Of a DNA stretch of 19,222 bases, positions 15,354-18,244 are shown piece by piece. Made by a program: the position numbers and the translations under genes. Under the pieces are notes generated by a model, which saw nothing but the letters and a program-made list of their open reading frames with translations, did not search any database and was not told the DNA's origin. This DNA comes from a virus (taxonomy: Duplodnaviria > Heunggongvirae > Uroviricota > Caudoviricetes): the IMG/VR virus record IMGVR_UViG_2526164693_000012, one strand, 5' to 3'. Each line of letters starts with the position of its first letter. The stretch's first letter is position 1.

Positions 15354-16622
15354 TCAGCGTAATCTGCCTATGCGAACAGCCAGTCGTCCATTCTGGTCAT
15401 AAACCTCAATTTTATCATTGCGGATCACCAGTCCTACATTCTGATTAGAGTAACGAATTGTCAGTTGCCCTTGTGACGTAACACTGAAAAGGCCTCCAAT
15501 ATTCAGGTTACCCTGAGAATCAACCTGAAAGTTTCCGTTCTGAATAACGGCACTCCGGATAACTGGCGAAGTGATACTTACCCCGGCTTTTACCTCATCC
15601 GCCACAACCTTCCGCGACACCAGTGTTTCAATCACCGCGTCATAAATCATCGCTTTCGGGATCACTACCTTGCCACCTGATACCGCAAACGGATAGGCTG
15701 TGTTATCCGGATTATTCGGGTCAAAGACAAACAACTGCGACGCAGAAATTGCAACCTGACTTACAGGCCTGCCTTCACTGTCTTTTCCGGCGACAATCCC
15801 GATCCCCGCAGTGATACCATCAACTCCCGCTTTTTTTGACCACATTGCAAGAAAAGCTTCACCGCCTTCTTTATCCAATTTAGTGATGCGCTTGTCGACC
15901 TCATTAAGCGATTCACTGGTTGACGAATCCAGTGTGCTAATGCGGGTTTCAATACCACCAATCGTTCTTGTCGTTTCTTCCCTGAGAGTCCCTACAACTT
16001 CGGTTGTCTTAATTGCAGCATCCTTTACAGCCTGCCCCTGCGCGTTTTTTATTTCTTTACGCAGCTCGGACACAACCGGCGACTTTGCAGCCTCATCGCG
16101 GATCTGGTCAATGATGGCCTTCACGCCGATCTGTGTTTGTGCCTGAGTGCCTTTTTCAGCATTCCATGGACCTTTCACTCCTGCCGCGTTAACAAAACGT
16201 ATCCAGTAAAATCCCGACCAGCCAGGGTCAACCGGATCGCCGTAAACCTGCCCCGGCGTCGTGGCAACCAGCACTGCATCAGCAAGGTCATCCTCCGTAC
16301 CCCGCCAGATTTCAGTCAGTGAATGTCCGCGATAATTAGGCATATCCCATTCAAGAAGAACCGAGCCAAATCCACCGGTCGCCTTAAAATTCAGCGGTTT
16401 TGTGGGAAAATCAACAGTCATTAAAGTACTGTCAATCTCAATACCCGGATTCAGTGCATATGAGGCACCACCCGATGTTCGACGCCGGGCGAGTTTAAGA
16501 CCAACCAGTTCCTCACGGGTCACAAATGCGTGACGTCCGTCACCACGCTGCCCGGTGCCAATTTCCATATTCTCCACAACAGTGGATAAATCCTTCCCCG
16601 CACGCCACGGTTTTCTGGTCAT
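15354..16622 (-). CDS. Tail tip / host-specificity protein, J-like C-terminal fibronectin-type and receptor-binding region, 422 aa
   Basis: Blocks FYWIRFVNAAGVKGPW and AMWSKKAGVDGITAGIGI...SQLFVFDPNNPDNTAYPFAV align with the C-terminal part of lambda J as recalled (YYFYIRSVNTVGKS; AMWAVK...VAGIGL...FIDPANGNETPMFVA); ATG overlaps the upstream stop (ATGA). Confidence 0.8.
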   Translation of the reverse strand: MTRKPWRAGKDLSTVVENMEIGTGQRGDGRHAFVTREELVGLKLARRRTSGGASYALNPGIEIDSTLMTVDFPTKPLNFKATGGFGSVLLEWDMPNYRGHSLTEIWRGTEDDLADAVLVATTPGQVYGDPVDPGWSGFYWIRFVNAAGVKGPWNAEKGTQAQTQIGVKAIIDQIRDEAAKSPVVSELRKEIKNAQGQAVKDAAIKTTEVVGTLREETTRTIGGIETRISTLDSSTSESLNEVDKRITKLDKEGGEAFLAMWSKKAGVDGITAGIGIVAGKDSEGRPVSQVAISASQLFVFDPNNPDNTAYPFAVSGGKVVIPKAMIYDAVIETLVSRKVVADEVKAGVSITSPVIRSAVIQNGNFQVDSQGNLNIGGLFSVTSQGQLTIRYSNQNVGLVIRNDKIEVYDQNGRLAVRIGRLR

Positions 16623-18244
16623 ACCGGCATCTCCGACATTGATGTACTCAGGGTTATTCGTTCCACCTGCCCGAATCCGGATACCATCACCTGCCAGTTT
16701 TGCCCGGTTGCTGCCGGAAGTCTCACCACACTTCCCTTAAACGTACCCGGCGCAAAATGAATCACAGGAACATCATCAGCCATAATGGTGATCCCCACCC
16801 GCTCAGGCGCCGGAGATTTCACCCTGATACAGGAAAAAGAGGTTCTTTCAGGTAATGAAAAAATTTTTGAATGCCACCTTATCGTGGAGGGCAGAGCCCC
16901 CCCGGCAAGCACTGACATTTTGTCTCCTGTCACCACGCGCATCATATCTTTCGCGAGATCAACCCATGCGCAGTCAAACGGTGTACTGAGATAACGGATA
17001 TCCATGTTCACCGGACTGAATACAAACACATCCTGCTTACCATCCGGTTTCGTGTAACAGGCAATGTATTCACCACGCCAGGGATAAGCCACAATGGAGG
17101 CCGGATTAAACTGACTCTGCCACTGTTCCGGTGAAACAATCTGTTCCGTCGCCAGCGCGACATTACCGTTTGCATCAACAGACACCAGGCCATTTGTTCC
17201 TGCATACAGCACAAAACCCTCCATCGCAACCATACTCCGCCTGCTCAGACACGCCTGCATTGAAGGGATTTTGGAACCAGAAATTGTGGACGGTGATACC
17301 CCACTGAACAAATAAGGCTCCCCCTTTGTCGCCACCACCAGTGACGTTCCCAGCGGACAGATAGCTACAATATCTTCTGCCGTCGTGTGACGATTCACTT
17401 CCGGCCATGCATACGGCAGATACGCTTCCGAAAACATCACTTCATTACCGGCAAACCCGGCGGCAATACCGTTAGCCATCAGGCAAAGGCCTGTCATATT
17501 CTCTGGCGGCGGCAGGTAATCCCATGTCGCCAGGGAAGGCCCAAGGTTTTTCGCCGGTATTTTGTCCGTGTAACTGAGCACGGATGCATCCAGTTCAGCC
17601 ACAAGTAAAAAATCCGCCTCCCCTCCACCTGATGCAGAGCGATAAATCCGGCGACGTTTAATACTGGCATTCTGCAATGGCACCGGAGCCAGCGTCAGTT
17701 GTACCGCAGTTCCCGGAGTACGGAGTGTTACCTCCAGAGACGCCGGACCTGGCGGACCTTCTTCACCATAATCTGAGACAAAGGTTTCCGTATAAAACCG
17801 GGTTTCATCATCATTCGGGTTATCGTCAGAAACATCACCGCCCTGCTGAACAGTACAGACAGGAGCTGTCGTCGGCGCGGGGATCCCCAGACGATACGAT
17901 GATGTCGGGTGATTCCCGTCCCCTTTTGTGGCAATAGTCGCATCCGTCACTTTAGGAAAACGCCCGTCAGTGTAGTAAATACGCCCGTGGGGGTCCTGAG
18001 CGATCGGACTGCGGATCACATCCACCACATCCGGCCATGCAAACCAGAAATCGTCACGGTAATGAAAAATTGTTTTTGGCTTAATTGTGAATGTTTTCTC
18101 AACCCCGGATATCTGACGTTCTGGTGTAATAACACCAAACCGGAAATGGCAGTCCTCCGCCAGTACAGCGGAATGCTCGGGCAGCATGGATGTCACAACG
18201 CGCGGCATCATCCCACGCATCGTGGTGATATCGATATAGGGCAT
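16619..18244 (-). CDS. Tail-tip associated protein, 541 aa, translationally coupled to the J-like C-terminal gene
   Basis: Start placed at ATG 18244 (SD AAGGA 6 nt upstream); the track's 18322 start is a GTG without SD. No clear similarity to the lambda J N-terminus in my reading. Confidence 0.65.
   Translation of the reverse strand: MPYIDITTMRGMMPRVVTSMLPEHSAVLAEDCHFRFGVITPERQISGVEKTFTIKPKTIFHYRDDFWFAWPDVVDVIRSPIAQDPHGRIYYTDGRFPKVTDATIATKGDGNHPTSSYRLGIPAPTTAPVCTVQQGGDVSDDNPNDDETRFYTETFVSDYGEEGPPGPASLEVTLRTPGTAVQLTLAPVPLQNASIKRRRIYRSASGGGEADFLLVAELDASVLSYTDKIPAKNLGPSLATWDYLPPPENMTGLCLMANGIAAGFAGNEVMFSEAYLPYAWPEVNRHTTAEDIVAICPLGTSLVVATKGEPYLFSGVSPSTISGSKIPSMQACLSRRSMVAMEGFVLYAGTNGLVSVDANGNVALATEQIVSPEQWQSQFNPASIVAYPWRGEYIACYTKPDGKQDVFVFSPVNMDIRYLSTPFDCAWVDLAKDMMRVVTGDKMSVLAGGALPSTIRWHSKIFSLPERTSFSCIRVKSPAPERVGITIMADDVPVIHFAPGTFKGSVVRLPAATGQNWQVMVSGFGQVERITLSTSMSEMPV

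Follow-up and report, generated by a model that had tools for sequence, protein, structure and literature searches.

Introduction

The two genes considered in this work lie on the minus strand of a 19,222-nucleotide (nt) stretch of caudoviricete DNA (IMG/VR record IMGVR_UViG_2526164693_000012; the whole of this stretch is referred to below as the window), and their closest described counterparts are two genes of the Shiga toxin (Stx) phage VT2-Sakai (Sp5), viz. the open reading frames (ORFs) ORF70 (567 amino acids, aa) and ORF71 (422 aa, DUF1983). In Sp5, ORF70 and ORF71 were each deleted in frame and without a marker by Mondal et al. (2016, Sci Rep 6:39036, PMC5155283). Loss of either gene abolished both plaque formation and lysogenisation, while each deletion was rescued in trans by its own plasmid-cloned gene. 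DNase-resistant DNA was present at normal amounts in both deletions, yet an antibody to the lateral tail fibre ORF67 no longer bound to either of them. Both genes were thus reported to be essential for tail formation, and the roles of their proteins were left open. In the same study (PMC5155283), binding to BamA was attributed to ORF67, and the two genes that follow, ORF72 and ORF73, when deleted singly, were not among the nine essential genes and proved dispensable on K-12.

Five other described systems resemble this locus in part. In phage lambda, gpJ (1132 aa) is located at the tip of a siphovirus tail, and it consists of an N-terminal hub of ~700 residues (Phage-tail_3 and related domains), FN3 domains, a straight fibre and a receptor-binding domain that begins after residue ~985. 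In the podophage P22, gene 10 (tail hub) is followed by gene 26 (tail needle), and particles lacking gp26 leak their DNA. For phage GP4, the PDB entry 8jov ('Portal-tail complex of phage GP4') contains six chains of a 577-aa 'Virion-associated phage protein' (chain A). In the N4-like Pseudomonas phage DEV, gp56 is a J-like short tail fibre (PDB 9ZE4; mBio 2026, PMC12892993), which is placed laterally on a 12-fold tail tube that has a separate plug, gp74; the next two genes, gp55 and gp54, are essential, the genes have overlapping start and stop codons, and gp54 is the binder of LptD. For the Traversvirus phage tv24B, a modelling study (Front Microbiol 2025, PMC12309495) describes the tail spike YP_009168168.1 as a gpJ-like central spike without an immunoglobulin (Ig)-like receptor-binding domain, and proposes two downstream proteins as the binders.

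Identity of the locus and its proposed interpretation

From 15000 to 18500, the window shows 100% identity, along the entire segment, to the genomes of 933W, VT2-Sakai (Sp5) and Stx2 converting phage I, and to those of numerous further Stx phages. With this segment as the query, a coverage of 80% or more was reached in 183 phage records, and the junction of the two genes is the same in these. Phage 933W is a short-tailed Stx2 phage (Sepvirinae, Traversvirus), and based on coordinate mapping from this match and the annotated ORFs, the window corresponds approximately to its positions 39.8-59.0 kb, which include lom, a 2806-aa polyvalent protein and hokW/sokW. The two genes are annotated in 933W as L0124 (ST933Wp62, 'hypothetical protein') and L0125 (ST933Wp63, 'tail fiber protein'). 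They are the same as Sp5 ORF70 (ECs1232) and ORF71 (ECs1233), respectively, with which they are identical in sequence and in annotated length (567 and 422 aa).

Based on the evidence described below, we interpret L0124 and L0125 as two distinct, translationally coupled genes of the short tail of 933W, of which the first encodes the tail nozzle and the second a short, J-like central fibre, and we assign to this interpretation a probability of about 0.85. In the arrangement proposed, L0124 would form the nozzle, i.e. the distal part of the podovirus tail tube below the portal and adaptor, whereas L0125, whose gene comes right after that of the nozzle, in the place of the tail needle gene of P22, would form the central fibre; by analogy, we infer that in 933W the former is probably a hexamer and the latter probably a trimer. 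From its N-terminus onwards, the fibre is predicted to consist of a conserved motif, a domain resembling FN3, a helical rod whose length varies, a tip domain of the lambda J type and short beta-hairpins. The nozzle hexamer would assemble under the adaptor, and we infer that the fibre trimer would then dock, by means of its conserved N-terminus, in or under the nozzle exit, with a gene order and a symmetry mismatch like those of P22 gp10/gp26. The overlap of the two genes and the GGAG site preceding the fibre gene would couple the two genes in translation, the fibre following the nozzle, which would help in making both partners together. Lastly, the hairpin end of the fibre would serve as an attachment site for further subunits, presumably recruiting the products of the next two genes, L0126 and L0127.

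It should be stated that the feature studied here is real, ordinary and already known, as the sequence is that of 933W and the two genes have been known to be separately essential since 2016 (PMC5155283). Further, a J-like spike of a Traversvirus was already published in 2025 (PMC12309495), and DEV gp56, the nearest relative of the fibre with a solved structure, appeared in 2024-2026. What is added here, viz. the assignment of L0124 as a nozzle and a corrected start codon, is a refinement of the annotation and not a discovery, because the assignment is a direct consequence of homology to a structure already solved. However, the short-tailed Stx phages spread the Shiga toxin genes and their adsorption apparatus targets an essential protein, BamA; a map of the nozzle and the J-type central fibre can be used for the fitting of cryo-electron microscopy densities and in receptor-binding experiments, and it corrects database labels such as 'hypothetical' and 'internal virion protein' as well as the 567-aa start.

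Two separate genes at the L0124-L0125 junction

The first-pass annotation had read, directly from the sequence, two minus-strand ORFs of 541 and 422 aa which are joined by an ATGA overlap, and this reading is correct. However, two explanations had been offered for it, viz. that these are genuinely two subunits, or that a single ancestral J-type gene of ~960 aa has been split by a frameshift (authentic, programmed or sequencing-derived), which is considered here first as a pseudogenising change or a sequencing error at 16619-16622. The second explanation can draw on only the adjacency and the 4-nt overlap of the two ORFs, and on isolated single-base defects in this pair of genes in individual contigs. 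A 4-nt ATGA overlap is in itself not unusual, since the late operons of phages frequently use this form of translational coupling. When the loci from IMG/VR were compared (73 with a readable junction, of which 70 have both genes complete), two separate ORFs were found in all 70 complete loci. The orthologues compared are therefore split and none is fused, whereas the first-pass annotation had named uniformly fused orthologues as the mark of a frameshift.

The type of junction changes with divergence. In the complete loci in which the identity to the nozzle is 56-100%, the junction is ATGA (GTGA in one case) in every locus except the one designated L041. In contrast, in ten loci with 42-44% identity the junction is TAATG, with an overlap of 1 nt, and hence the relation between the two frames is different. 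Since two different frame relations occur, both of them tightly coupled, the junction cannot be accounted for by one ancestral gene having undergone a frameshift. The GGAG sequence is retained in all of the IMG/VR loci that were compared, inclusive of the distant ones, where it reads CAGGAG.

The homologues of the two proteins lead to the same conclusion. Of 353 homologues of L0125, the 120 best are 245-588 aa in length, and of 828 homologues of L0124, the 120 best are 419-613 aa, mostly 541 or 543 aa; no fused protein was found among these. An exhaustive HMMER scan of 1.84 billion representative sequences recovered 4477 clusters of the nozzle family, and no nozzle-fibre fusion was present among the best 150 of these. 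The long members in these 150 clusters (600-1119 aa) carry their added sequence before query residue ~90-200, and in them the alignment reaches, or projects to, the C-terminus of the protein itself, which is thus the C-terminus of the nozzle. Both frames are under purifying selection, the ratio of nonsynonymous to synonymous substitution rates (dN/dS) against seven relatives being 0.11-0.16 for the nozzle gene and 0.09-0.18 for the fibre gene. Further, as described below, the upstream protein shows no similarity to J and matches a podophage tail chain instead. Lastly, the genetic results for Sp5 (PMC5155283) apply to this very junction, as the published deletion primer ORF70_B2F (ATGCCGGTATGACCAGAAAAAC) matches the junction in the window and the lengths in the supplementary table are the same as those found here; each gene is separately essential and is complemented in trans. 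With these results, the probability of a single gene broken by a frameshift becomes practically nil, and it is the alternative of two genuine subunits which is upheld: L0124 and L0125 are two ordinary, separately essential tail genes, and the TGA/ATG overlap between them is a translational coupling junction between the nozzle and fibre genes.

One could also suppose that towards the end of L0124 the ribosomes undergo a programmed -1 frameshift, which gives rise to a nozzle-fibre fusion besides the two separate products, as the reading frame of the fibre gene is shifted by -1 from that of the nozzle gene. However, the fibre frame is open for just 38 codons upstream of its ATG, and in this open stretch there is no in-phase slippery heptamer of the X XXY YYZ type. 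In addition, the relatives with 42-44% identity have the other frame relation (TAATG), and separate plasmid copies complement their own deletions (PMC5155283). A programmed frameshift is, therefore, very improbable here, and the two coupled but separate genes remain our interpretation.

The single-base defects mentioned above are present in two loci. In L041 (~5623-5640), a run of six A's is found in place of seven just after the ATG of the fibre gene (ATGACAAAAAAC), and in L051 (~5100-5240), a 1-nt deletion inside the nozzle gene cuts the nozzle to 411 aa. These defects could be due to sequencing errors, decay of the prophages or homopolymer slippage. Within the window, a G7 homopolymer is present in the nozzle gene (16897-16903, minus strand; coding nt 1341), and the gene pair contains several A6/A7 and T6 runs, all of which are potential sites of slippage or sequencing error.

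L0124, a probable tail nozzle

For L0124, no Pfam or NCBIfam family was found, and its comparison with lambda J by BLASTP revealed no significant similarity (best E 0.1), in agreement with the first-pass observation that the upstream protein is unlike the J N-terminus. Instead, in a phmmer search L0124 matched PDB chain 8jov_A with an E of 7.4e-54 over residues 4-477 of 541, with ~30% identity. A 577-aa protein of Ralstonia phage Gervaise matches the same chain over its full length (1296.8 bits, E-value 0). Homologues of L0124 are present in podophages of the Ralstonia GP4-like and Burkholderia Bcep22-like groups, and in those of Erwinia, Sinorhizobium, Ochrobactrum, Vibrio and Aeromonas. In GP4 and its relatives, the gene of the chain A family occupies, as in 933W, the position in the late gene order directly before a small or a fibre gene, to which it is tightly coupled. 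However, what follows it in the GP4-like and Bcep22 phages is a gene for a small protein (106-117 aa) and not for a J-like fibre.

Chain A of 8jov is reported to be the nozzle of GP4, and we read it as such because of its six copies, the title of the portal-tail entry and the structural neighbours of L0124. The latter were obtained with Foldseek for an AlphaFold2 (AF2) model, built, as was that of L0125, from a shallow alignment (16 sequences with at least 60% identity to the query). The top 8 matches were all podophage tail complexes (GP4, Pa223 (C6), VP1, SU10, cyanophage A4 and P22), although the TM-scores were just 0.20-0.32; these matches, which may reflect a beta-propeller-containing fold as in other podophage nozzle or hub proteins, are given supporting weight only. 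Among the top matches is the P22 chain 9jg6_a, with 470 residues in the entry, which, judging from its length, we take to be the tail hub gp10. The arrangement of the two genes in 933W, as read here, is similar to that of P22, with a nozzle or hub gene followed by a central fibre gene. The phenotype of the Sp5 ORF70 deletion, viz. full heads without a fibre, fits a nozzle. Our literature search found no explicit statement naming L0124 or ORF70 as a nozzle, and no solved tail structure of an Stx phage.

The start of L0124 also requires a correction. As judged from the comparisons, the annotated 567-aa form, which starts at GTG 18322, is probably 26 codons too long (18245-18322), and the ATG at 18244, giving 541 aa, is better supported. 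This start is favoured because the homologues are mostly 541 or 543 aa in length (among the best 120 of 828), because PHROG 17680 aligns only from residue 27 of the 567-aa form and the GP4 protein from residue 4 of the 541-aa form, and because an AAGGA sequence is present 6 nt before the ATG (GTCAAAGGAATTTCTATG). In reading the sequence, no AAGGA-like site was seen before GTG 18322.

L0125, a short J-like fibre

L0125 contains the Pfam domain PF09327 (Phage_Tail_Tip, formerly DUF1983), which spans residues 256-333 (E 6.5e-11; score 42.6 bits, cut-off 22), and no other Pfam domain or NCBIfam model was found in it. The protein matches PHROG 496 ('tail fiber') and PHROG 31 ('central tail fiber J'). 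Its BLASTP alignments with lambda J pair residues 251-389 with J 853-984 (E 3e-4) and 131-194 with J 779-855 (E 0.05), so that residues 131-389 of L0125 are the counterpart of J ~779-984. As judged from these alignments, L0125 corresponds to the middle part of J (~780-985), i.e. the end of the last FN3 domain, the rod and the straight-fibre tip with PF09327. By the same comparison, it is without both the J hub and the C-terminal receptor-binding domain of J: the hub is found in neither of the two ORFs (from Pfam and from BLASTP of L0124), and the alignment of L0125 ends at J 984. Further, gpJ is mounted on a siphovirus tail tip, whereas L0125 would be mounted on a podovirus nozzle.

These results bear on how the locus had been described at first. 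It was correct that the 422-aa ORF is J-like (PF09327, PHROG 31), but the part represented in it is J ~780-985 and not the extreme C-terminal receptor-binding domain that 'J-like C-terminal region' implied. The description of a J-like tip that is encoded as two ORFs is misleading, as the upstream ORF is no piece of J and is probably a podovirus tail nozzle, and the suggestion of a mosaic tip holds only in the sense that a central fibre module of siphovirus type is present on a podovirus nozzle.

Among PDB chains, L0125 has a significant match only with 9ze4 chain N, viz. DEV gp56 (429 aa, three chains; E 1.8e-12). The two matching stretches of L0125 are residues 77-195 and 257-421, the second of which reaches the last residues of both proteins, so that the FN3 region, the tip and the C-terminal hairpins are homologous. 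The fibre gene is followed in DEV by gp55 and gp54 and in 933W by L0126 and L0127, genes of candidate partners, and in both cases the outer-membrane receptor is essential (LptD for DEV and BamA for the Stx podophages). The tail spike YP_009168168.1 of tv24B should be the orthologue of L0125, as judged by its position in the late operon alone; the gene upstream of it and the overlap are not discussed in the available sections of that paper (PMC12309495).

In the alignment of fibre homologues (alignment A3), a conserved N-terminus (residues 1-45) and FN3 region are followed by a helical segment with insertions and deletions, a conserved tip domain and two alternative C-termini. The length changes in the rod occupy columns 201-290 of this alignment; among the close relatives, this segment is deleted in the Salmonella forms and is 28 residues longer in P0010. 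The variation is much larger in Aeromonas phage phiARM81mr and Vibrio phage D80, where the nozzle gene is followed by that of a long fibre, 1322 or 1431 aa in length (L082 7608-11576; L081 7659-11954). These fibres have in common with L0125 the N-terminal 190 residues, inclusive of the N-terminal motif, and the tip domain, but their rods are 800-900 residues longer.

A further proposal, which we regard as speculative and rather doubtful, is that the 45-residue N-terminus of the fibre (VENxEIxTGQRGDG..AxT) is a portable 'nozzle-docking' adaptor used across this podophage lineage, possibly also in the small protein of the GP4-like and Bcep22 phages, and that the hairpin end recruits L0126 and L0127 for BamA, in parallel to the LptD fibre of DEV. 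If this were true, J fibres of siphovirus type and of any length could be mounted on a podovirus nozzle. In the GP4-like and Bcep22 phages, the slot after the nozzle gene is filled by the protein of 106-117 aa noted above. When a hidden Markov model (HMM) of the N-terminal motif of the fibre was compared with 347 ORF segments, this small protein was the best match, and the likeness is, on sequence grounds, no more than suggestive. For the small protein of Gervaise, there was no PDB match.

Observations weighing against the proposed assignments

A number of observations weigh against the interpretation of the two proteins as a nozzle and a central fibre. The assignment of the nozzle is based mainly on sequence homology to one solved chain, and the evidence from folds is weak for both proteins: the AF2 model of L0124 is poor (predicted local distance difference test, pLDDT, 55.6), and that of L0125, with a pLDDT of 34.5, is too poor for a fold search. 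The likeness between the fibre N-terminal motif and the small protein of the GP4-like (Gervaise) and Bcep22 phages does not reach significance (HMM E 0.09 and 1.1). In addition, DEV gp56, although homologous to L0125, is lateral to a separate plug and is not the plug itself (PMC12892993).

The comparison with P22 is also imperfect. P22 gp26 has no sequence similarity to L0125 and is without an FN3 or a J-type tip domain. Further, the Sp5 ORF71 deletion keeps its packaged DNA, unlike the P22 particles lacking gp26, and because of this the L0125 fibre, if the analogy is followed, may not be the plug.

Lastly, L0124 matches PHROG 511 with an E of 8e-281, and the description of this family is 'internal virion protein, head and packaging'. 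If this description were correct, then L0124 would be an internal virion or ejection protein that is packaged in the head, and not the nozzle. The same label has been carried into the records of the homologues from Bcep22 and Vibrio phages. However, it conflicts with the GP4 portal-tail complex, in which the homologous chain has been built as a six-copy tail component, and because of this the label of PHROG 511 is probably wrong. Additionally, only podophage tail complexes, inclusive of the P22 chain 9jg6_a, are at the top of the Foldseek list, and the Sp5 ORF70 deletion packages DNA normally yet loses the tail fibre (PMC5155283). An internal protein is thus an unlikely identity for L0124, and we retain its assignment as the nozzle.

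The two types of fibre ends and the genes L0126 and L0127

The fibres of this family terminate in two different ways. One is a short hairpin end (..IEVYDQNGRLAVRIGRLR), which is seen in the 933W type and also in DEV gp56, and the other is a long end that is similar to the receptor-binding region of J; PF12421 is present in some of the long-ended homologues. The co-occurrence of these ends with the genes downstream was judged at the sequence level, in loci extending far enough downstream. Every such locus with the short end of the 933W type contains both L0126 and L0127, except for the Salmonella type with a fibre of 368 aa. In contrast, the loci with the long J-like end (490-589 aa) have neither of these genes, though the next conserved gene is present in them. 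This pattern, with L0126 and L0127 present only alongside the short '..RIGRLR' end of the fibre, was noted from window 14438-15339 and the loci L012, L039, L052-L059 and L063. It is because of this co-occurrence that the hairpin end is regarded as a putative attachment site.

In the Salmonella type, the slot is filled by one ORF of 345 aa instead (L058 6793-7830). Its N-terminus (SSYGLEVFRRDG) resembles that of L0126 (MEYGFAIYNRNN) and L0127 (MYGLSIMKPDG) and also the terminal hairpin of the fibre (KIEVYDQNGRL). For L0126 and L0127 themselves, there was no meaningful sequence match in the PDB, inclusive of DEV gp55 and gp54.

Three candidates can be named for the binder of BamA, viz. the lateral fibre ORF67, the tip of the fibre, and L0126/L0127. 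If the last of these were correct, the J-like fibre would be a mere scaffold and BamA would be recognised by L0126 and L0127 seated on its hairpin end, as in the DEV gp56-gp55-gp54 assembly. The distribution just described is consistent with this, since the short end is accompanied by the two proteins and the fibres that carry a J-like end in cis are without both. DEV provides a precedent with its overlapping start and stop codons and with gp54 as the LptD binder (PMC12892993), and in the tv24B paper (PMC12309495), the L0126-type protein is proposed as an Ig-like receptor-binding element and the L0127-type protein is modelled against BamA. However, ORF72 and ORF73 can each be deleted on K-12 (PMC5155283), whereas gp55 and gp54 are essential in DEV; L0126 and L0127 show no detectable similarity to DEV gp55, gp54 or any PDB chain; BamA binding has been assigned to the lateral fibre ORF67 by Mondal et al. 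(PMC5155283); and the published support consists of modelling only (PMC12309495). We, therefore, consider a mere scaffold to be a possibility of some weight, though one that is on balance unlikely. The features of the locus are summarized in Table 1.

Organisation of the locus and other features of the window

Table 1. Positions in the window of the two tail genes, their translation signals, the predicted regions of the fibre and the two genes that follow
Feature	Position	Strand	Remarks
L0124, probable tail nozzle protein, 541 aa	16619..18244	minus	Starts at ATG 18244; in databases GTG 18322, 16619..18322, 567 aa
L0125, putative short J-like central tail fibre, 422 aa	15354..16622	minus	ATG start
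ATGA stop/start overlap, 4 nt	16619..16622	minus	TGA of L0124 over ATG of L0125; TCAT on the plus strand
GGAG ribosome-binding site of the fibre gene	16631..16634	minus	8 nt before the fibre ATG, within the last L0124 codons (..M S E M P V stop); TCGGAGATGCCGGTATGA
AAGGA ribosome-binding site of L0124	18251..18255	minus	Precedes ATG 18244
Fibre residues 1-45, conserved N-terminal motif (VENMEIGTGQRGDG..AFVT), proposed nozzle-docking element	16488..16622	minus	(Nearly) invariant in alignment A3
Fibre residues ~72-165, FN3-like beta domain, approximate limits	16128..16409	minus	DEV gp56 29-151; J 779-855 (E 0.05); AF2 strands 77-142, low confidence
Fibre residues ~166-255, predicted helical rod of variable length	15858..16127	minus	AF2 helices 167-264, low confidence
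Fibre residues 256-333, Phage_Tail_Tip PF09327	15624..15857	minus	J 853-984; DEV gp56 271-427
Fibre residues 373-422, short-type C-terminal beta-hairpins (..NVGLVIRNDKIEVYDQNGRLAVRIGRLR) in place of the J receptor-binding domain	15357..15506	minus	Aligns with the C-terminus of DEV gp56
L0126 / Sp5 ORF72, 92 aa, candidate distal fibre partner	15061..15339	minus	PHROG 557
L0127 / Sp5 ORF73, 205 aa, candidate distal fibre partner	14438..15055	minus	PHROG 425

The neighbouring genes in this operon are spaced just 2-14 nt apart, and L0126 and L0127 start 14 and 5 nt, respectively, after the preceding gene. A strong hairpin resembling a terminator, GGGGGAGCA-TAT-TGCTCCCC followed by TTTTTT, is present at 18399-18419 on the plus strand (the late genes are on the minus strand), within the 217-nt gap (18322-18539) that separates L0123 from the annotated GTG start of L0124. 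A second hairpin, which is GC-rich and followed by a T run (CCGGAGCCCGGCTCCGGTTTTTGTTG), is found at ~18826-18852 on the minus strand, right after the stop of the ORF at 18867..19217; this ORF is L0122 of 933W, which in RefSeq carries the label of a second 'tail fiber protein'. The latter hairpin looks like an intrinsic terminator within the late operon, and it is missing from the list produced by the pattern scan.

The 2806-aa ORF (1595-10015, minus strand) is Sp5 ORF80, without which, as Mondal et al. (2016, PMC5155283) found, tails are not formed, and its LPD38, LPD5, LPD1 and MuF_C domains identify it as a polyvalent protein. Giant proteins related to it are also found after the same block of genes in the Bcep22 and GP4-like phages. 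Downstream of the late operon and on the opposite strand to it are the hokW/mokW toxin genes (368-580, plus strand), with the sokW antisense RNA at ~306-376 on the minus strand by coordinate mapping, and a gene for an OB-fold protein of the YgiW/YdeI family (700-1044, plus strand), as in the annotation of 933W.

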